From a virus (taxonomy: Duplodnaviria > Heunggongvirae > Uroviricota > Caudoviricetes): a stretch of DNA of 64,000 nucleotides. Below, piece after piece: positions 46,176-55,219 of this stretch. Location: the IMG/VR virus record IMGVR_UViG_2778261540_000003. One strand, 5' to 3'. A program made the translations under genes and the position numbers. The notes beneath the pieces are model-generated. The model did not search any database. It was given only the letters and a program-made list of their open reading frames with translations, and was not told the DNA's origin. Within the stretch, counting starts at the first letter, position 1. Each line of letters starts with the position of its first letter.

Positions 46176-47438
46176 ATGAGCACTTCAGCACAAAACCAAT
46201 CAATCGAAAATGTATCTATCCCTGATGTCCTGAATGCCGGTATCCCGGCCATTATCCAGAACATCCGGGCCGCGCAACGCCGCGTTAGTTGTGATGACCT
46301 CACAGCACGTTTTTTTGATAATGCGGTTCAGTCAGCGGAGATGCTTCACGCACAGCTTATTGATGTTTATAACGCAGAAGCTGATAGCCATAACTCCCTG
46401 GTAGATGCAGCTGAAAATATGCAGTTGGATCTCGGTCTGAAGGGTAAAGAAATTGAAGAGCTTCAGCTGCAAATTGAACATTTGAAACGCCAGCAACAGG
46501 ACGCGATCGACGATGCGACGCATGACGCCAACCAGCGTGCTGATAATGCCGAACGTATAAGCATTGAGCTGGAAACAAAACTCAATGAAATGACCGCGAT
46601 GGTTGAACTGCGGAACTCACAGATTTCAACGCTAAAATCTCAATATAAAGAGATCATGAAACTTGATCCTTTTAACCTTGAGAAACGCTATAACAAAGCT
46701 AAAAGCGAGCGACAGGAACTGCGTAAGCAGGTCGCCGACCTTAACCAACAGCTCAAAAAAACTATTAAAGATGCAAGCGAAGCGCGCGTGGCATTTGCTA
46801 ATAAAAAAGCAGAGGTTACCGCGCTGGTTAATGAGAATGCCAAATTTGCGACGCTCAAGAAGGAAATGTATGGCATTACTGAGCGCCGTTTCCCTGCAAG
46901 CAAACTTCATCCGACGTTAGGGCAAATCTCCTTCTTCCCGCGCCTCCTGGCTTATGGGATCTCATCGCCTAAAGAGTTCAATAACGAGCGTCCTTATATC
47001 GTTTCTAAGCTGGACTTTGCTTATCAGTTCTGCTGCGACATGGGCTATGCCATTGATATCCGAATCAACGAATGGTTGATGCCAAACTTCCAGCCGCTGG
47101 CCATTTTCCGCGAGTTCCAGCCGGAAGGTTGGGTAGAGTTCTTCCATGAATTGATCTGTAAAGAGATGGAAAGCCGCCGCCCGGAACTGGTCCGCCGTGT
47201 CGAGTGGGCGCAAGAGGTTATGTTGGCAGATGCAGAGCTGCCGTTCGAACCGGAATTTATTGATGATCTGGCAACTAAAGGGCTGCATACCCTGTTTGAT
47301 GTGGTTACCCGCCGTCATGAGCAGTTGGTTGTCGAATTGGGTTTAGAGGAAACAGCGGCAAGAAGACTTCTCGATGTTTGCTATGCACGTAGCGATGCAT
47401 GGGAAAAAGAGAACGGCGGCACTATTTACGTTCGCTGA
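46176..47438 (+). CDS. Hypothetical coiled-coil protein
   Basis: 420-aa ORF; N-terminal half is a long predicted coiled coil, C-terminal half globular. Confidence 0.45.
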   Translation: MSTSAQNQSIENVSIPDVLNAGIPAIIQNIRAAQRRVSCDDLTARFFDNAVQSAEMLHAQLIDVYNAEADSHNSLVDAAENMQLDLGLKGKEIEELQLQIEHLKRQQQDAIDDATHDANQRADNAERISIELETKLNEMTAMVELRNSQISTLKSQYKEIMKLDPFNLEKRYNKAKSERQELRKQVADLNQQLKKTIKDASEARVAFANKKAEVTALVNENAKFATLKKEMYGITERRFPASKLHPTLGQISFFPRLLAYGISSPKEFNNERPYIVSKLDFAYQFCCDMGYAIDIRINEWLMPNFQPLAIFREFQPEGWVEFFHELICKEMESRRPELVRRVEWAQEVMLADAELPFEPEFIDDLATKGLHTLFDVVTRRHEQLVVELGLEETAARRLLDVCYARSDAWEKENGGTIYVR

Positions 47439-47457
47439 CAGTTACAGTGTCACTTTT

Positions 47458-47493
47458 AATGCTGGTGGAGTGCGCCCACCAGCATTTTTTTCG
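47458..47493 (+). terminator. Rho-independent terminator
   Basis: AATGCTGGTGG-AGTGCGC-CCACCAGCATT hairpin followed by seven Ts. Confidence 0.6.
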
Positions 47494-47510
47494 TCCAATG
47501 AGGAGGGCAT

Positions 47511-48017
47511 TTGAGTATTTTCAATAAACACGCACACCAGGAACGTCCGTATATCGTCATAGTTGATATTGATGGAACAATATCAGAGGCAACTGAAGAC
47601 AGACTGCATTTGCTTCCGCCACCAGGTAAAGGTGCATTAACAAAGGACTGGAACGAGTTTAATCTCGCCTGTGACACCGATACTCCCATCACTCCAGTTA
47701 TTGATATGGTGCGCCAGTTATTTAACGTTTACACGGTCTGGTTTGTAACCGGGCGCTGTGAGATCGCAAGGGATAAAACACTAGCCTGGCTGCGGAAGTA
47801 CGTAACAAACGGGGCTGAGCCTTTGCTATCTATGCGTCCTGCCACCGATGACAGAAATGACGGCCCAGCAAAGATTGATCTCCTTAAGAAAATTGGTCTA
47901 AGTAAAATCGCGTTCGCGCTGGAAGATAAGATTGAAGTGGCGCGTGTTTTCAGGAGGCACGGCGTGCTTACGTTAATGGTCAGGGAGTATGAAAACGCGC
48001 TTCTCCATCAACAATGA
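47511..48017 (+). CDS. HAD-superfamily phosphatase-like protein
   Basis: N-terminal VIVDIDGTI (DxDGT) motif typical of HAD hydrolases. Confidence 0.5.
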   Translation: MSIFNKHAHQERPYIVIVDIDGTISEATEDRLHLLPPPGKGALTKDWNEFNLACDTDTPITPVIDMVRQLFNVYTVWFVTGRCEIARDKTLAWLRKYVTNGAEPLLSMRPATDDRNDGPAKIDLLKKIGLSKIAFALEDKIEVARVFRRHGVLTLMVREYENALLHQQ

Positions 48018-48033
48018 TTGCTCTAATAAATAT
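48017..48033 (+). promoter_or_regulatory. C1-operator-like site
   Basis: ATTGCTCTAATAAATAT, 16/17 match, overlapping the preceding stop codon. Confidence 0.7.
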
Positions 48034-48211
48034 TGATTTTTAAAACAGAGAAAGTGAAAATAAAAACATGCCGCAAGGCGCGGCATGTATCCAATCAATC
48101 ACAGGAGCTGAAAATATGAACACGGCATTCAAAATCATTATGGCCGCGATCTATTTCTGGCTGTTCTCTATCACTTTTGGCGGCATCGTCGCACATGGGT
48201 AAGGGGGATGC

Positions 48212-48793
48212 ATGAAAGGCGAAGTGAAAGAGCGCGGCATGATTTTTAACGATGAGATGGTCCGGGCAATTCTTGGCGGGAATAAAACACAGACTCGCAG
48301 GATTGTTGAAGAAAAATTCTATGGACGGGCAGTGGCCGCAGAGTTGCTTGCCAAGCATTGTCCATATGGTCAACCGGGCGATCGTATTTGGGTTCGCGAA
48401 ACCTACCGGGTACATGGCAAAGCGACGGACGTCGCAACGCTGGTTTATCGCGCAAGCGTGCGTAACTCCTGGACAGAACAAACGCACCGGGTTCCGGTCG
48501 AGGTTTGTAATAAACCAGTATCAGAAAAGTGGACGCCATCAATTCACATGCCGCGCTGGGCATCGCGCATTCTTCTGGAAATTACCAACGTGCGCGTTGA
48601 GCGGTTGAACGATATCAGCGAATGCGATGCAAGGGCTGAGGGCGCACCAACAGAATCGACCCTCATTGGCGATAAGCATTACCCAGGTTTCCGTAGCCTA
48701 TGGAAATCAATTTATGGCGAAGATAGTTGGAACGCTAATCCTTGGGTGTGGGTAATAGAGTTTGAGCGTATTCAGGGGGCAACCAGTGAGTGA
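48212..48793 (+). CDS. Hypothetical protein
   Basis: 193-aa ORF, first in an operator-controlled operon. Confidence 0.4.
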   Translation: MKGEVKERGMIFNDEMVRAILGGNKTQTRRIVEEKFYGRAVAAELLAKHCPYGQPGDRIWVRETYRVHGKATDVATLVYRASVRNSWTEQTHRVPVEVCNKPVSEKWTPSIHMPRWASRILLEITNVRVERLNDISECDARAEGAPTESTLIGDKHYPGFRSLWKSIYGEDSWNANPWVWVIEFERIQGATSE

Positions 48794-49046
48794 GTCAAAA
48801 TGCCAAATTAATGGCAACAAGATAGAACCGTGCGCGGCGTTGGCACAATCCCTGGAGCATGACGCTGAATACACGACGCGAAAAGGTCTGCTGAAATACA
48901 AAATCTATAACCATGAATTAATTCATTCACAAGACCTGATCATGCTGCGGTCTGGTGAATTTTCTAAATCGCCTATTCGAGTTTCATTTTGCCCGTTCTG
49001 TGGTGAAAGTCTGAAAACGTGGGAAGCGGAGGCAACCAGTGAATAA
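48762..49046 (+). CDS. Hypothetical small Cys-containing protein
   Basis: 94-aa ORF overlapping both neighbours; FCPFCGESL motif. Confidence 0.35.
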   Translation: MSVFRGQPVSESKCQINGNKIEPCAALAQSLEHDAEYTTRKGLLKYKIYNHELIHSQDLIMLRSGEFSKSPIRVSFCPFCGESLKTWEAEATSE

Positions 49047-49683
49047 CCGCTTTTACATGATGTGCTTGCGTGAAACTGTGGGTAATAACGCCTCATTCCA
49101 TTGCCATAACGGCAATGGTTACAGTTCTGATATCGATCGCGCTCATGTTTACACGCTGGAAGAAGCCCAAAAAGCCTGGAATTGTGGACGAGATATCGAT
49201 CAGCCTGTTTGCGCTGATAGCGTGGATGCAATGGCTGTGTGGCACGTTGATTGCCAGTACATCCCCACAGAAAGCCTGATTGAGTCAGATTGCACTGCGT
49301 ATGTGGCCTACAAAAAAGGTAGCTGGAACGGCAACGATGTTTACTGGCTTCAACACGGTGGATTGCCAACAGATGACTTCAGTAAAGCGACCATCTTTAG
49401 CGTCGCCAACAAAAACGAACCAGGAATAGTTTGGTTGCCATTTTCCATTGCTGATGCAGCAAAGCGTCGGACGTTCAATATCAATAACTTTAACCGCAGA
49501 ACAATGGTTCAGGGCGCAGGTTTGGTCATGCCTGACTGGTTGAAAGAGCAGAACAGAAGAAAGAAGTCGCGAAGCGGGAAGGTGCGTTGGAATTGTCCGC
49601 ATTGCGGAAAAATAACCTGGCAGTACAGCCCATATGATTTTGAAGGCTGTAGTGATTACAACTGTGAAGGATGGCGAGAATGA
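49039..49683 (+). CDS. Hypothetical protein with C-terminal Cys cluster
   Basis: 214-aa ORF; NCPHCGKITWQYSPYDFEGCSDYNCEGW. Confidence 0.4.
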   Translation: MNNRFYMMCLRETVGNNASFHCHNGNGYSSDIDRAHVYTLEEAQKAWNCGRDIDQPVCADSVDAMAVWHVDCQYIPTESLIESDCTAYVAYKKGSWNGNDVYWLQHGGLPTDDFSKATIFSVANKNEPGIVWLPFSIADAAKRRTFNINNFNRRTMVQGAGLVMPDWLKEQNRRKKSRSGKVRWNCPHCGKITWQYSPYDFEGCSDYNCEGWRE

Positions 49684-50429
49684 CAATTGACTATCAGGCA
49701 CTGCGTGAGGCGGCAGAGCGTGCAATTCCGGCAATGGAACACCTGTTAATGTTGCCAGTTGATGATGATTTGTTAACTGAACAGGAACTTAAGGATTACG
49801 GTGTGGATATTGATGCGCTCAACGCCTTCAAATTTCTGACCGGACCAGAAACCGTGCTGGCACTACTGGATGAACGGGAAAGAAACCAGCAATACATAAA
49901 ATGCCGCGACCAGGAGAACGAGGATATTGCGCTAACGGTAGGGAAGCTGAGAGTTGAGCTTGAGGAAGTAAAACAACACGCTGAAGAATTATCCGAAACC
50001 AAGGCTGTTCGTAACCAATGGCGGCCAGATATTTGCCCAATAACCGGACGTGCATTTTTCATGTGGATTGAGCATCCAACATTGGGAAATGTGCCGACAT
50101 ATGGTGGCCCATTAGATAGTTACACCATTCCAACAAAGGACGGTGACGGTGAGTTTTCATGTGAGCGTTACGATCATGATTTTGGCGGTTGGGTAGAAAG
50201 CGAATGTCTTGGGTTATATCTGATTGATGATAGAGAACAATGCAGGGTCTACGAACTGGAGGAACGCGTTAAGGAACTGGATGCTCGGGAAATATCGCTC
50301 CCGGAACGTAGCAGCATGCTTCATCGAACAGATTTTCACGATGATTACCAAACGGTAATGGCATACAAAGTTTCTGAAGTCATCGATGCAATCCGCGCCG
50401 CAGGCATTCGCATCAAAGGAGGTGAGTAA
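49671..50429 (+). CDS. Hypothetical protein
   Basis: 252-aa ORF coupled to the upstream gene. Confidence 0.4.
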   Translation: MARMTIDYQALREAAERAIPAMEHLLMLPVDDDLLTEQELKDYGVDIDALNAFKFLTGPETVLALLDERERNQQYIKCRDQENEDIALTVGKLRVELEEVKQHAEELSETKAVRNQWRPDICPITGRAFFMWIEHPTLGNVPTYGGPLDSYTIPTKDGDGEFSCERYDHDFGGWVESECLGLYLIDDREQCRVYELEERVKELDAREISLPERSSMLHRTDFHDDYQTVMAYKVSEVIDAIRAAGIRIKGGE

Positions 50430-50601
50430 TGCGTGTGGCATGTATCGGCTTGTTACCGTACCCGACTCGTTTTTGGGCTTCTGCGCTAATTGCAAAGCCG
50501 TATGTCCTGATGGCTGACAACATCATCCCGGCACCAAAGCGCCGCCATACCGGTATTGCAGCGGCACGACGAGCAGCAAAGAGACGCAGGAGAGCAAAGC
50601 G

Positions 50602-50778
50602 ATGAAAAACCGTAAGGCAAAACGACTTTTTTTACAGCGACCTGTGCGTGTGGTGGAGCTGGTTATTAGCAACCATAAGATAGCGGTACTCCATCCATTT
50701 GGTCAGGTGGCTTTTGCCGCAAAGCGTAAGCCTACTGCGTCACAGAACAGGCGGAAGAAAGGGTACGCTGTAAGATGA
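50602..50778 (+). CDS. Small basic protein, tandem paralog 1 (MKNRKAK...)
   Basis: 58-codon ORF below the track size cutoff; GGAG RBS; ATGA overlap with paralog 2. Confidence 0.4.
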   Translation: MKNRKAKRLFLQRPVRVVELVISNHKIAVLHPFGQVAFAAKRKPTASQNRRKKGYAVR

Positions 50779-50963
50779 AAAACCGTAAAGCAAAGATTCT
50801 GTTAGTTCGTAGAAACGCTCCTGGCGTCTGGCAGTGGGTGAGACTCAGCAACCGACGGATGGGGTTGATGAAATATTACGGGATGATGGATTGTGGTTTT
50901 TGCAAAAAGCCCAGCGCGGCGCAAAACCGCTGGAAAAACCACTTGCGCACTAAAGGAGAGTGA
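50775..50963 (+). CDS. Small basic protein, tandem paralog 2 (MKNRKAK...)
   Basis: 62-aa ORF with the same MKNRKAK N-terminus as the upstream micro-ORF; contains CGFC. Confidence 0.4.
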   Translation: MKNRKAKILLVRRNAPGVWQWVRLSNRRMGLMKYYGMMDCGFCKKPSAAQNRWKNHLRTKGE

Positions 50964-50964
50964 T

Positions 50965-51174
50965 ATGGCTATCGCTGCAAGTTACACCATGCATCTCTAT
51001 TGTGATTGCCTCCAGTGTACAGATGGCAAATATAAGTCGCCAGACTTCGGTGAGTATATAGGTACGTCATGGGCTGGCTGTGCAAAAGAGGCGCGCAAGG
51101 ATGGCTGGCGAATAAGCAAAGACAAAACGCGTGCTTTTGCGCCCGGGCATAAAGTTTTGAGGATTAACAAATGA
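50965..51174 (+). CDS. Hypothetical small Cys-rich protein
   Basis: Internal ATG preceded by AAGGAGAG gives MAIAASYTMHLYCDCLQCTDGKYK... Confidence 0.4.
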   Translation: MAIAASYTMHLYCDCLQCTDGKYKSPDFGEYIGTSWAGCAKEARKDGWRISKDKTRAFAPGHKVLRINK

Positions 51175-52367
51175 CCACTATAACCAAAGAGCGACTGCTG
51201 ACAATCAAGCAGTGGCGCGAAACATACGGACCGGGTAGCAACGTTGTACTGCCAGCAGAAGAAGCGGAAGAACTGGCACGGATTGCTCTGGCATCGCTGG
51301 AAGCAAAACCAATAGGTGCATTCCACATTGCAGAACAGCAAGTTGACGGCACAAGTGACTACCTCAAGGATGGAGAATGGCCTATTGATAATGGAATTAT
51401 TGAGGTCTACGCCGCTCCCCCCGTTCCAGTAGTACCGGAAGAAAAACCAATGCCTAATCCTCTTAGCATGTACGCGGTTGATGCTGTTGCCGCTATTGCA
51501 GAGGTGAGAGGCTGGAACGCCTGCCGCGCCGCCATGCTTCAGTCCGGAAACTTTCGGGAAAATAAGAATTCGTCAACCAATAATTTTCGGGAAATCGCGG
51601 AAACGTCAACCAACTATCCGGTAATTCCTAGTGAAGTGTTGTCCGCAATCCTGAAGGTTGCCAAGATTCGTGCCGATTTCGATGATTTTGACGGTGACAG
51701 GCGAGGTATCGGTGATTGTCTGGATGAGGCTGAGCAAGAGCTTATCGTTACCATTAACAAATATGCCAGTCAGTTGGCAGCAGAACCGATAGCGACTAAT
51801 GACGTTCGAGAGCAAACAGCCGTTCCGCCAGTTCCTGTAATACAGGCTGATGTCGCGCAGGCAATTGAAAAACTCAAACGGAAATTAGTGGAATGCAATC
51901 GCTATAACTACTGCGCAGATGCAGTTAAGGGCGTTGAGTATGCCTGCCACGCTGCCATGCTTCAGGGTAGCCAACCTGTAAGCCAAACTTACAAGTTTCC
52001 AGTTAATACACCTTGCCAGGATGCGCCAGCCCATATCTGGCTGCAAACAGCTGGAGTATGGCCAGAAGATGGCGAGTTAAGCGAATTAACGTGGTGCAGC
52101 CACAATCAGCACCATGATGACACGCTATATGTTCGAGCTGACTTGGTAAATGGCAATTCTCAGGTAACTCCGGATGGTTGGATAAGCTGTAGTGAGCGAA
52201 TGCCCGCTCAAGATGATTGGATTTTAATTTATTCAAAGCACGGTGAGTATATGGCAGGACAGGTGCAAGGGGAATACGTGGAGTTGAGCGACGGCACTTT
52301 ATCCTGGTTAGGGAACGCCTTGTTCTGGATGCTGCTACCAGAACCTCCCCAGGAGGCAGGTCAATGA
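51171..52367 (+). CDS. Hypothetical protein
   Basis: 398-aa ORF with ATGA coupling to the upstream gene. Confidence 0.45.
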   Translation: MTTITKERLLTIKQWRETYGPGSNVVLPAEEAEELARIALASLEAKPIGAFHIAEQQVDGTSDYLKDGEWPIDNGIIEVYAAPPVPVVPEEKPMPNPLSMYAVDAVAAIAEVRGWNACRAAMLQSGNFRENKNSSTNNFREIAETSTNYPVIPSEVLSAILKVAKIRADFDDFDGDRRGIGDCLDEAEQELIVTINKYASQLAAEPIATNDVREQTAVPPVPVIQADVAQAIEKLKRKLVECNRYNYCADAVKGVEYACHAAMLQGSQPVSQTYKFPVNTPCQDAPAHIWLQTAGVWPEDGELSELTWCSHNQHHDDTLYVRADLVNGNSQVTPDGWISCSERMPAQDDWILIYSKHGEYMAGQVQGEYVELSDGTLSWLGNALFWMLLPEPPQEAGQ

Positions 52368-52431
52368 GCTGGCCTGAAGCATTCGCAACGGTAGGAATTG
52401 TGATGGCGGCAGCACTGGGTTTGTATTCAAT

Positions 52432-52683
52432 TTGTCGCTGGTGGTAACGATGGGGAAATTAACTTTTGTAGTCGAATTTGAGGATGGTAAAGAGCCACCT
52501 GTTAGCGCCAATCTTGATGTTGCTGGTGGAAGGATTGTTTCGGTTCTATTTGGTGACTACCGAGATGACTTCTTCCAACCAGAAGAAGTTGATGTGGTGC
52601 GAGAGGCATTAAACGAGTTAAGTGTTGACAACGATGATGCTCATGCGGAAATCATCCAAAAAATGGAACTGCTAACTCACTAA
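52432..52683 (+). CDS. Hypothetical small protein
   Basis: 83-aa ORF in operon context. Confidence 0.3.
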   Translation: MSLVVTMGKLTFVVEFEDGKEPPVSANLDVAGGRIVSVLFGDYRDDFFQPEEVDVVREALNELSVDNDDAHAEIIQKMELLTH

Positions 52684-52765
52684 ATTATCAATTATGGTGC
52701 TATAACCTACGACACCGAGAGAAAATTTATAATGTCAAAAGTAAATGTTTTGATTTTTTCAGCAA

Positions 52766-53155
52766 TTGTTGGCTTTGGTTTTACTGCCGGAGTGCAGATT
52801 TATATTACGTGGGAAAAAATCATCAACTACGCATGGAGTTGTTTTATTAAGTGAGGTAAGTATGTGGAGAGGTAATAATCATGGCAAAAGCCAGATGATA
52901 CTTACCGAATATAAGCTAGACCACAAAACCAATAAATCACGCTCAGTATATTTGCTCCGGCACAATAGTCGCGTAAGAAATACCGTGCTGGAACAAAATC
53001 TGACAGTTGAAATGGATAATTACGGGGGATTCAAGCCAACAATTTCACTTGATGATTTTCCTCGTGGTTTAAGCGAAAGAGAAGCAATGCTGAAATTAGC
53101 AGAATGGCTACAAAGATTAAGCATTGCTATTGAAGATAACTGGTCTGAACCTTAA
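52766..53155 (+). CDS. Hypothetical protein
   Basis: 129-aa ORF in operon context. Confidence 0.3.
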   Translation: MLALVLLPECRFILRGKKSSTTHGVVLLSEVSMWRGNNHGKSQMILTEYKLDHKTNKSRSVYLLRHNSRVRNTVLEQNLTVEMDNYGGFKPTISLDDFPRGLSEREAMLKLAEWLQRLSIAIEDNWSEP

Positions 53156-53161
53156 ATTTAT

Positions 53162-53536
53162 ATGATGACACTAAAACATTTTCTTGACCGCCCATTATGG
53201 GCGGCAGCCGCAGGCTATGACTTTAATTATATGGATTGCATGTCTTATACTGCCAATGCATACGACCATTCGTTCAGCCTGCTGTTTAATTCTTTAAGAA
53301 TATTGCCGGAAACAGAAGTTGGAGAGCTTCATTTATGGCTATTGGGCTTTATCGCGGCTGTCGTTGGTATTGCTGTATGGCCTTTTATTTTCTGGCTGGT
53401 GGCTGTTGTAGTGTGGTTTAAGTGCAAGGCATACCGGAAAAAGTATTTCTTAGGTGATGGAATGACTGATATTGCCAAAATGAACATTGAAAAATGGACT
53501 AAGGAATGTGAAAAGAAATGGCGCAAAAAGAAATGA
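53162..53536 (+). CDS. Hypothetical membrane protein
   Basis: 124-aa ORF; central hydrophobic helices (LWLLGFIAAVVGIAVWPFIFWLVAVVVWF). Confidence 0.4.
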   Translation: MMTLKHFLDRPLWAAAAGYDFNYMDCMSYTANAYDHSFSLLFNSLRILPETEVGELHLWLLGFIAAVVGIAVWPFIFWLVAVVVWFKCKAYRKKYFLGDGMTDIAKMNIEKWTKECEKKWRKKK

Positions 53537-54291
53537 CAAGAATCACTAAAGAACGCATATCAGAGATTATCGCCCGTATCGAAATGTATGGTCACGGTGC
53601 TGGATATACGGCAGATGAAGTATTGGCACTTGCCCAAATGGCTTTGGCGGCTTGCAAAGATGATAAAAAAATGAAGCTTATCGACTTGTTAGTGAAGGAG
53701 CTGCCCAAGTGCGGCGGGTGGCCTGATGGTATGATCGATTGTCGCCTGCTCAGTGCCAATTTAATGGCGCCATGCGCGACTTTTGCTTTTGGCTCGGACC
53801 ACAAAAAAGACACTTTCTTTGGGCGCAATTTTTGTTGTGAGATTGAGCTTCCAATCGGTGACCTTGATAGCGATGAATACCAGTCAGTTGTCACTCGCGA
53901 ACAATACGAAGCTGCTCTCATAGCGTCGCAGAAAGTCGAGTTCAATGGTGATGAACCTGAAAGTAAGGCTTACAAGTTAGATTTTGAGCAATGGCTGGAA
54001 CAGCAACGCGGGAAAATCGATGTGGACTGCGGTTGTGTGTCTGCGGAAACATTCATGCACTGGTTGCGGGTAGCTTATGTGGCTGGCAACCATCCGGATT
54101 TTCCGGATAGTTCCCAACAATCGCCCAAGAAAAGCGTAAAAACCACTCTGGAAAGAGGCTATCTTGAGGCCGCATTAAAGATTAAGCCGGGCCATACGCT
54201 AGGCGTCATTGATGCCATGTTGGTTCATGAAATGGCGAAGGCTTTATTGCCGCTGGTGGCTGATAAAATTCCGAATAAGGCCGATATCTGA
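53518..54291 (+). CDS. Hypothetical protein
   Basis: 257-aa ORF overlapping the upstream gene end, followed by a terminator. Confidence 0.45.
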   Translation: MAQKEMTRITKERISEIIARIEMYGHGAGYTADEVLALAQMALAACKDDKKMKLIDLLVKELPKCGGWPDGMIDCRLLSANLMAPCATFAFGSDHKKDTFFGRNFCCEIELPIGDLDSDEYQSVVTREQYEAALIASQKVEFNGDEPESKAYKLDFEQWLEQQRGKIDVDCGCVSAETFMHWLRVAYVAGNHPDFPDSSQQSPKKSVKTTLERGYLEAALKIKPGHTLGVIDAMLVHEMAKALLPLVADKIPNKADI

Positions 54292-54302
54292 TCACCATGC
54301 TA

Positions 54303-54334
54303 AAATCCCCTCAATTCACAGAGGGGATTTTTGT
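54303..54334 (+). terminator. Rho-independent terminator
   Basis: AAATCCCCTC-AATTCACA-GAGGGGATTT hairpin followed by a T-run. Confidence 0.6.
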
Positions 54335-54336
54335 AT

Positions 54337-54603
54337 ATGTTGCATAGAGTTTTATGGAAAAGCGTTATTGTCGGCGCGATACTGGCTATATCTGGGTGTG
54401 CAATGGTGCAATACAACGACGGTGAAAAGGTAAGCATACAGTCAGATGGTTGGTATGGCCTGGATAGCCTGCAAAAAACCGCAGATAAAGCCTGTCAGCA
54501 ATATGGGAAGTCTAAAGCAGTATATCAGCATAGCGCGAACGCTAACCCTAATCTTGCGCCCGGTTCGGGTGTTCAGAATACCATCTGGAAATGTGAGCCT
54601 TAA
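54337..54603 (+). CDS. Small lipoprotein
   Basis: [21 protein letters not shown]: signal peptide with lipobox ISGC. Confidence 0.5.
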
Positions 54604-54605
54604 AT

Positions 54606-54845
54606 ATGAGCGACTGGAATATTGCAGCTAAAAGTCAGGAAGAACGGGATAAGGTTAACGTTGATCTGGCTGCCAGCGGTGTGGCGTACAAAGAGCGATT
54701 GAACATACCTGTCATAGCTGAACAGGTAGCCCGCGAGCAACCAGAGAATCTGCGCACCTATTTCATGGAACGGTTACGGCACTATCGGCAGTTAAGCCTC
54801 CAGTTGCCAAAAGGGAACGATCCGGCATATCAGAAAACAGAATAG
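54606..54845 (+). CDS. hot: Homolog of DNA polymerase III theta subunit (HolE)
   Basis: [43 protein letters not shown] aligns closely with E. coli HolE. Confidence 0.85.
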
Positions 54846-54856
54846 TTGTTAGGCTA

Positions 54857-55219
54857 TTACGCAATGCCCGCGCCATTCTTAGCGGGTTTTAAGCCATATT
54901 CACCGTTGTAGAAATTACTCATGTTCCATTCATTGGGAAGCTCTTTTCTGTCCAATGTATAGTGGCGCACGATATAACGATCTTCATCTTCTTCGATGGA
55001 CAGGCGGACATAGCCAATGTGAATTACCGATACGGGCGGTGTTCGTATTGCATAGATGTCGCGAAGATATACCGGTAGCTCGACAAATGCATCAGGTGCA
55101 TCTGTGATGCTCGTTTTTTCACAGTATTCATATAACGCATCGTTGATATCGTTAAGAGATTCATGATCGTATATTTCCAGGTAATTACCGCGATCGCGAT
55201 GGTACTCGATTTTAGCCAT
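54857..55219 (-). CDS. Hypothetical protein (second gene of SOS-box-proximal module)
   Basis: 120-aa ORF abutting the upstream 194-aa ORF with no gap. Confidence 0.4.
   Translation of the reverse strand: MAKIEYHRDRGNYLEIYDHESLNDINDALYEYCEKTSITDAPDAFVELPVYLRDIYAIRTPPVSVIHIGYVRLSIEEDEDRYIVRHYTLDRKELPNEWNMSNFYNGEYGLKPAKNGAGIA

Follow-up and report, generated by a model that had tools for sequence, protein, structure and literature searches.

A coupled pair of PHROG 1380 paralogues

The window analysed here is a 64,000-nucleotide (nt) stretch of a tailed-virus genome (Caudoviricetes; IMG/VR record IMGVR_UViG_2778261540_000003), and positions 50602–51174 of it hold two overlapping genes for small basic proteins followed by a third small gene, all on the plus strand. 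The first of the pair, open reading frame 1 (ORF1; 50602–50778), encodes 58 amino acids, starts MKNRKAKRLFLQ / MKNRKAKRLFLQRPV, has a class A body of the ISNHK type and ends in an 'internal' tail, ...KPTASQNRRKKGYAVR and stop. The second, ORF2 (50775–50963; 62 amino acids, class B1), starts MKNRKAKILLVR / MKNRKAKILLVRRNA and ends in a 'terminal' tail, ...KPSAAQNRWKNHLRTKGE and stop. That 58- and 62-codon frames share the N-terminus MKNRKAK and are joined by ATGA had been stated in a preliminary description of this DNA, and is directly visible in the sequence and its open reading frame list, with the stop/start overlap at 50775–50778. ORF1 is preceded by an AGGAG Shine–Dalgarno sequence (50588–50592) with a spacer of 9 nt, which is part of a conserved 5' junction unit, CAGGAGAGCAAAGCG followed by ATGAAAAACCGTAA. 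Upstream of the ORF2 start there is nothing besides a weak and distant Shine–Dalgarno-like sequence, AAGAAAGGG (50755–50763), and translation of ORF2 would probably rely largely on termination–reinitiation at the ATGA.

The proteins are 37% identical across 54 residues in a BLASTP alignment (E 5e-10), and the starts of their genes are identical at 20 of 21 nt. Both match the phrog_1380 profile end to end, ORF1 residues 1–58 aligning with positions 1–60 of its 62 positions (E 6.5e-23) and ORF2 residues 1–62 with positions 1–62, its full length (E 1e-40). Alignment and profile search of the pair thus uphold the proposed paralogy, and identify ORF1 and ORF2 as diverged paralogues, of classes A and B1, of the small prophage-restricted family PHROG 1380. 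The earlier wording, 'tandemly duplicated', is right in so far as the paralogues are in tandem, but a simple recent duplication does not account for them, because the two classes are old and distinct (synonymous divergence between classes, pS, ~0.67) and recur in other combinations in other phages; ORF1 and ORF2 are members of the two that were joined and have stayed together.

The family is confined to phages and prophages of Enterobacteriaceae, where it is spread over lambdoid, P22-like, P1-like, Sashavirus and even Vequintavirinae genomes; it comprises 60 clusters at 90% identity, with 47 representatives in 1.84 billion proteins. Members are 58–65 amino acids long with isoelectric points (pI) of about 11–12, and the description of the pair as 'small basic' proteins fits well: pI is 12.0 for ORF1 and 11.3 for ORF2, against family medians of pI 11.6 and net charge +14. 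The RefSeq members of PHROG 1380 (for example WP_000797279.1, of the ORF2 type, and YP_009624945.1, which is ORF1 in RCS47) share this size, the same motifs and the same genomic niche, and the PHROG lacks an assigned function, a Pfam entry and a structure. The sequences of ORF1 and ORF2 are already present in hundreds of records as 'hypothetical protein', and the family is catalogued and uncharacterised.

Three near-invariant motifs run through the family: M[KN]NRKA[KR]xL (also written MKNRKAKxLL) at the N-terminus, [ILV]SN[RH][RK] in the centre, where it forms a hairpin in the structural model, and KPSAAQNRWKNH near the C-terminus, on a helix. All three (MKNRKAKxL, [ILV]SN[RH][RK] and KPxAxQNR) occur in both ORF1 and ORF2, with ORF1 carrying the RRKKG variant of the C-terminal motif. 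The ratio of nonsynonymous to synonymous divergence (pN/pS) within classes is lowest in SNRR (0.04), followed by the N-terminus (0.09) and the C-terminal motif (0.20); in the segments between the motifs it is 0.45–0.56 within classes and ~0.9 between them. The N-terminus has diverged synonymously between classes (pS 0.51, pN 0.10), and its motif would therefore be kept by selection at the protein level and not only by recent gene conversion. An AlphaFold2 model of ORF2 from a 33-sequence alignment is moderately confident (predicted local distance difference test, pLDDT, 80.7; predicted template modelling score, pTM, 0.53) and consists of a helix (residues 4–11), three strands (19–25, 28–33 and 38–43) and a second helix (48–60). 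No fold match was found for this model, and sequence searches with the family found no relative in Pfam, NCBIfam, PADLOC or the Protein Data Bank (PDB).

Known folds were also considered and rejected. ORF2 has a weak match to a C2H2 zinc finger (PF12171, zf-C2H2_jaz; E 0.096, 13.3 bits against a cut-off of 22.6), with C40, C43 and H56 but without a second His; Cys is absent from ORF1, and the Cys/His columns are not conserved in the family. The double-stranded RNA-binding domain (dsRBD) has the same predicted order of helix, three strands and helix, a similar length, and a Lys-Lys...Ala-Ala pattern where the last helix starts; superposition of the model on solved dsRBD structures did not bear out this assignment.

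The pair lies within a longer series of genes on the same strand. Immediately upstream of ORF1 is ORF0 (50429–50605; 58 amino acids, pI 12.0; phrog_13831, E 1.1e-41), with a hydrophobic N-terminal half and an Arg-rich tail (RRAAKRRRRAKR); comparison with the family by hhalign (P 0.54) ruled it out as a third diverged member. Directly 5' of ORF0 is an Ead/Ea22-like gene (49671–50429; 252 amino acids; Pfam PF13935, E 4e-27). On the other side of the pair are ORF3 (50965–51174; 69 amino acids; phrog_926, E 1.5e-36) and, next in the operon, the gene of a 398-residue DUF551-domain protein (51171–52367; Pfam PF04448, E 5.2e-9). The TAA of the Ea22-like gene and the ATG of ORF0 overlap as TAATG, ORF0 and ORF1 overlap by an ATGA at 50602–50605, the TGA of ORF2 is separated by one base from the ATG of ORF3 at 50965, and ORF3 and the DUF551 gene overlap by an ATGA at 51171–51174. 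The AAGGAG Shine–Dalgarno sequence of ORF3 (50953–50958) lies within the final codons of ORF2 (TKGE) and is part of a conserved 3' junction unit. Since ORF0, ORF1 and ORF3 all overlap the gene that follows, the whole stretch reads as one coupled gene run: the Ea22-like gene, ORF0, ORF1, ORF2, ORF3 and the DUF551 gene form, by their arrangement, a tightly packed and translationally coupled series. The run had earlier been drawn as the pair plus ORF3, which stands as far as it goes, but ORF0 and the ORF3/DUF551 overlap had been missed.

ORF3 contains four Cys, as expected of the 'Cys-rich' 69-residue frame reported here before, and its end had been placed correctly at 51174. In its family YCDCxxC is invariant (C13, C15 and C18) and His62, in APGHK, is mostly conserved, a pattern from which ORF3 may be a small zinc-binding protein. 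It has no Pfam family, and its homologues extend to Kosakonia and Pantoea. The 398-residue DUF551 frame is intact here and in plasmid pLH85-a-A (L002 5772–6965; 99.7% identity over the full length by tblastn). The Prokaryotic Genome Annotation Pipeline (PGAP) records two 'incomplete' pseudogenes in its place; the probable reason is that the protein combines parts of several PHROG families as a mosaic.

Both genes are under purifying selection

Selection was assessed in a collection of 286 loci, from which a family hidden Markov model (HMM) yielded 463 family ORFs, all of them on the operon strand, and in 96 unique alleles aligned by codon. Within classes, the annotated frame has a pN/pS of 0.36 for class A, 0.35 for class B1 and 0.17–0.55 for the other classes, compared with 0.79–1.31 in the other sense frames and 0.89–1.82 in the antisense frames, the exception being the wobble-matched antisense frame (0.38–0.66). 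Third-position differences are in about two-fold excess, and even invariant residues vary synonymously: S25 is AGC or AGT, N26 is AAC or AAT, R27 and R28 use four codons each, G37 three, and R53 CGC, AGG or AGA. The neighbours behave similarly, with a pN/pS in the annotated frame of 0.33 for ORF0 (2.49 and 0.85 in its two other sense frames) and of 0.19 for ORF3. This frame-specific pattern identifies both ORF1 and ORF2 as real protein-coding genes under purifying selection. Conservation in related genomes, on which the preliminary description had made the standing of either ORF depend, is found for both: among 5426 complete E. coli genomes the ORF1 body is present in 138, mostly on plasmids, and the ORF2 body in 500 (~9%), including Shiga toxin (Stx) phages and P1-like plasmids.

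Existing annotations disagree over these genes. The RefSeq record of RCS47 has ORF1 and not ORF2; PGAP has ORF0 and ORF2 and usually not ORF1. In VT2-Sakai (L293, AP000363), a 155-residue 'orf8' (3762–4229 of the record) spans ORF0 and ORF2 by reading the ORF2 frame back over ORF0 into ea22. This long-ORF reading (VT2-Sakai orf8, phrog_12350) was rejected, as the frame of the extension over ORF0 is unconstrained (pN/pS 0.85, against 0.33 for the ORF0 frame itself). The 'orf7' of the same record (3545–3832) is likewise an over-extended old call.

A structured RNA or small RNA was also considered for the locus and rejected: there is no Rfam match, and the minimum free energy has a z-score of -0.02 relative to shuffled sequence.

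Arrays are built from conserved gene ends

A census of 123 unique cassettes shows that the family occurs in arrays of one to three copies. Single copies are of class B1 (31) or B2 (22, of which 15 have the terminal tail and 7 another tail). Pairs joined by ATGA are most often A-B1 (38, and one more with a non-standard B1 tail), followed by A-B2 (7), B4-B2 (4), B1-B2 (2), A-B4 (2) and A-B3 (1), and there is one triple, A-B1-B2. A class A copy is thus nearly always first, with a class B copy after it. The internal tail, ...QNRRKKGYAVR and stop, with its ATGA overlap, precedes another copy in every cassette but one (L145), and the final copy usually bears the terminal tail, ...QNRWKNHLRTKGE and stop; bodies of classes B1 and B4 also occur with the internal tail. 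By comparison of these cassettes, tail type follows position in the array and not the class or lineage of the body.

The DNA at the junctions is nearly invariant. The 5' unit, CAGGAGAGCAAA(A/G)CG and then ATGAAAAACCGTAAAGCAAAG, follows at least five distinct upstream contexts, the internal junction does not differ between A-B1, A-B2, B1-B2 and B4-B2 arrays, and the 3' unit, ...AACCACTTGCGCACTAAAGGAGAGTGAtATG, stands in front of at least seven different genes. The final four codons of this 3' unit (TKGE) also serve the next gene, whichever it is, as an AAGGAG ribosome-binding site. Position-bound tails and near-invariant junction DNA together lead us to conclude that homologous recombination within the conserved ends of the genes both assembles the arrays and reshuffles them, so that a small family of accessory genes builds its arrays through its own ends. 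The linkers at gene boundaries of lambdoid phages are similar in being short, near-invariant stretches at gene ends with many alternative neighbours in mosaic arrays, and exchange at such linkers is the Susskind–Botstein module model of the comparative literature on HK620, P22 and lambda. In contrast to those linkers, the conserved patches here are internal to a coding gene and under constraint as protein too.

In one locus (L144, 1650–2354) ORF2 is fused through a frame change to a downstream protein of ~170 residues (MALTHRELCQIAYKFLKRNGF...). This protein is the commonest alternative neighbour past the 3' junction of the family, and a homologue lies near a gene resembling one of Hafnia phage yong2 (discussed below) in L294.

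An exo-xis-type module in a P1-like phage-plasmid

An 801-nt stretch at the locus is 100% identical to several E. coli plasmids of ~90–100 kb and 99.9% identical to RCS47, a P1-like phage-plasmid. P1 backbone genes surround it, with pmgS and pap upstream and hot, humD and phd/doc downstream. When a 7.6-kb query (window positions 47400–55000) was searched, canonical P1 covered only 16% of it, and P7, SJ46 and RCS47 carry versions of the module; P1-like phage-plasmids have a hotspot for lambdoid exo-xis-type genes between pap and pmgT/hot. Such plasmids, which are among the carriers of the family, often bear resistance genes.

The same small genes occur in Stx-converting, other lambdoid and P22-like phages, between ea22 and the xis/int end. 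Stx2 phage 86 has the order bet, exo, ..., Ea22-like, ORF0, ORF2, ORF3, DUF551, and in the P22-like phage Bas106 a family gene lies between abc2 and xis. They therefore occupy the position of exo-xis genes, on the early-left strand between recombination genes or ea22 and the xis/int end. A variable gene set downstream of ea22 in the exo-xis region has been described (PMC8614690), and exo-xis genes are reported to shift the lysis–lysogeny balance (PMC8614690, PMC7093339). The variable genes of that region show the same mosaic turnover and tight coupling, and early expression is expected of both. Lambda ea8.5 and orf55 and Phi24B gp05 are small accessory ORFs in the same slot, after the Ea22-like gene and before DUF551 and the xis-proximal genes, although Ea8.5 and Orf55 have no relationship to the family in sequence or fold. 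Gene content and order identify the coupled run as an accessory module of the lambdoid exo-xis type, here residing in a P1-like phage-plasmid. It differs from its lambdoid counterparts in lying behind a putative C1-type operator instead of under pL/CI control.

This putative C1 operator is a 17-mer, ATTGCTCTAATAAATAT, at 48017–48033 on the plus strand, identical to the site annotated in P7 (NC_050152) as 'protein_bind, phage repressor C1, Op(hea)'. In P7 the annotated Op(hea) is just past pap; here the identical 17-mer is 5' of the operon that begins at 48212, and it is likely, from sequence identity and position, to be the control site of the operon holding the paralogues. Stop and start codons overlap within the operon from 48212, in which no terminator-like site was seen on the plus strand. 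The equivalent region of lambdoid phages is transcribed from pL. By analogy with pL and with the P7 annotation of the operator, the genes would therefore probably be expressed early after infection or induction and be off in the lysogen.

Other features were seen near the operator. A possible -35 element (TTGCTC) and -10 element (TAAAAC) overlap 48017–48033. A strong GC-rich hairpin of 10 bp at 48066–48088 lies in the 5' leader of the operon, where it would terminate leftward transcription only; overlapping it is a match to GcvB in Rfam that is below threshold (E 0.26). Between the operator and the first operon gene, at 48116–48202, is a hydrophobic 28-residue ORF (MNTAFKIIMAAIYFWLFSITFGGIVAHG) with its own Shine–Dalgarno sequence. 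It is conserved in P7, where it is unannotated, and could be a small membrane or leader peptide.

A weak resemblance to Sra and a possible role in nucleic-acid binding

The explanation that best accommodates these observations, and in which we place about as much belief as doubt, is that coupled PHROG 1380 paralogues, in arrays built by recombination, are early nucleic-acid-binding adaptors, with RNA or the ribosome as the preferred target. On the predicted scaffold of helix, three strands and helix, the three constrained basic/polar motifs would be held by a core that is near-neutral between classes, as in a small adaptor that docks onto an invariant polyanionic target of the host, that is, nucleic acid. 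This view is favoured because the proteins are extremely basic, their Lys, Arg, Asn, Gln and Ser residues are invariant while the core is changeable, expression is probably early, and the family is widely spread among phages. RNA or the ribosome would be preferred because the N-terminal half resembles Sra; this is a weak reading, with DNA a close second and roles in anti-defence or as DNA linkers lower. The expected effect would be on host physiology or the lysis–lysogeny balance, as reported for other exo-xis genes.

Sra (RpsV; PF08136, SRA_like) is a 45-residue, 30S-associated hibernation factor of stationary phase in Enterobacteriaceae. The sequence used here was confirmed as Sra by its match to PF08136 (E 2.6e-31). 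Sra is also tiny, very basic and restricted to Enterobacteriaceae, and its N-terminus aligns with MK-NRKAKxLL...[RK][ILV]SN[RH][RK], the two sharing M-K-(S)-N-R-x-A-[RK]-x-[IL]-L and then [KR]-[IL]-S-N-[QR]-[RK] in the same order from residue 1. When the family was aligned by hhalign with a 16-sequence Sra alignment, the score was 22.6, higher than in any of 798 column-shuffled controls, whose scores had a mean of about 9, a standard deviation of about 2 and a maximum of 19.2, and the hhalign probability rose to 44% once phage Sra-like sequences had been added. These came from a tblastn search of Sra against phage genomes, which found two phage proteins just under the PF08136 gathering threshold of 25 bits: a 94-residue protein of Hafnia phage yong2 (L290 2486–2770; MTNRTANRKARRLLGLDYKLSNK...; 24.4 bits) and gp67 of E. 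coli phage Sa179lw (L291 2501–2680; 22.3 bits). The yong2-like genes (L290, L294–L298) are in the same kind of accessory region, near DUF551-like genes, an exonuclease, a LexA-like repressor and an integrase. No Sra chain was found in the PDB by sequence. In a scan of viral contigs with the Sra alignment none of 52 pattern matches was confirmed, and a degenerate DNA pattern search recovered only five near-identical yong2-like loci, which yielded no better bridging profile; of 126 pattern matches to the family alignment in genome contigs, none was confirmed by tblastn.

Several results weigh against the explanation as a whole or against its Sra component. PGAP left ORF1 uncalled in four of the five E. 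coli records listed. ORF1 is disrupted near its start in 4–5 related IMG/VR loci (L140–L144), and about 5 of 69 ORF1 loci have a frameshift in its T7 run (~50627–50633); translation of L141 and L144 shows the ORF1 frame shifting at this run, which could reflect sequencing error, decay or slippage. ORF1 is also without W53 and H56 of the C-terminal motif, so that the two copies may act differently. For Sra, the hhalign comparison has a P of 3.8e-4, which is uncorrected for the implicit search behind the choice of Sra, and a probability of only 36%; even with the added phage sequences (36–44%), the link is under every standard threshold. PF08136 is not listed for ORF1, ORF2 or any of 33 family members even at E≤10, and the Sra HMM fails to retrieve the family. 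The likeness ends after ~29 residues and needs a gap of 8 residues in the spacer, the C-terminal halves are unrelated, and the short-spacer subfamily alone gives P 0.056 against Sra.

On balance it is doubtful that the MKNRKAK family, the phage Sra-like proteins of yong2 and Sa179lw, and chromosomal Sra form one superfamily of tiny ribosome-binding proteins, and we regard this as a speculative lead, albeit one open to test. If the resemblance were real, phages would reach the ribosome by way of this family, and arrays of 'hibernation-factor-like' proteins that dock onto the ribosome would be put to use early in infection by the temperate phages and phage-plasmids of Enterobacteriaceae. Sra would then be a prophage gene that had been domesticated, which could be tested against the proposal that it is 'of likely de novo birth' within Enterobacteriaceae (bioRxiv 10.1101/2025.11.04.686544). 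Apart from this lead, the pair is an ordinary kind of object, uncharacterised small basic accessory proteins of temperate phages, and the present contribution is mostly housekeeping, in that it establishes the gene structure where annotation pipelines give inconsistent calls. What it adds is that correct structure, with ORF1 as a real gene, together with the position-specific tail rule, recombination as the mechanism behind the arrays, the three-motif architecture and the Sra lead.

The preliminary description had offered two functions for the pair. A 'nucleic-acid-binding regulator' is plausible, to judge from the charge, the invariant Lys/Arg/Gln/Asn/Ser motifs and the location among early exo-xis genes. 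A specific form of it, in which the proteins are small sequence-specific DNA-binding regulators like Cro, Xis and Ea8.5 that tune lysis–lysogeny through phage or host promoters, is unlikely, though not far-fetched. Recognition would fall to the Gln/Asn/Arg-rich C-terminal helix, and the tandem copies could pair as heterodimers, to which the very basic charge, an invariant SAAQNRWKNH helix rich in the residue types that typically read bases, the nearly fixed order of class A before class B, and neighbours reported to shift lysis–lysogeny (PMC8614690, PMC7093339) would all be suited. However, profile searches gave no helix-turn-helix, ribbon-helix-helix or zinc-finger signature, no repeated candidate operator was seen near the genes, and the family is also present in Av-05 and Sasha, where a role in lysogeny is unlikely because these phages are virulent or non-lambdoid. 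The other suggestion, an 'anti-defence factor', found no specific support: PADLOC-DB, which holds defence models only, returned no family at E≤1 for ORF0 to ORF3, and a literature search found neither the peptide string nor any treatment of these ORFs in the exo-xis papers. Anti-defence or host-takeover inhibitors, in which the fast middle region tracks variable host defences and arrays broaden specificity, are accordingly rather improbable. They would suit an early accessory region of high gene turnover, bodies that are interchangeable in arrays and have a middle-region pN/pS near 0.9 between classes, and the spread over unrelated phage types and phage-plasmids. Yet no similarity to any characterised inhibitor was found, the strongest constraint falls on generic basic motifs and not on the variable part, and within classes the middle regions are still under purifying (pN/pS 0.45–0.56) and not positive selection.

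The remaining alternatives question whether the peptides matter at all. That one or both ORFs are chance frames, or belong to an untranslated structured RNA, is hardly credible: the absence of ORF1 from most PGAP annotations, the differing gene calls and the weak ORF2 Shine–Dalgarno sequence speak for it, but it is essentially refuted by frame-specific selection in both classes, and the finding of 463 out of 463 family ORFs on the operon strand, the empty Rfam search and folding no better than that of shuffled sequence stand against it as well. It is also very unlikely that the ORFs matter mainly as DNA, that is, as recombination linkers and ribosome-binding-site cassettes for lambdoid module swaps, with peptides of little function. 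Junction DNA that is near-identical in so many upstream and downstream contexts, tails that track array position instead of body class, and a Shine–Dalgarno sequence for the next gene encoded in the last codons are all consistent with such a role. Against it, in-frame purifying selection extends over the whole gene, including SN[RH][RK] far from the junctions (pN/pS 0.04), the N-terminus keeps its residues in spite of synonymous divergence between classes, and distant members retain the protein motifs despite having different tails.

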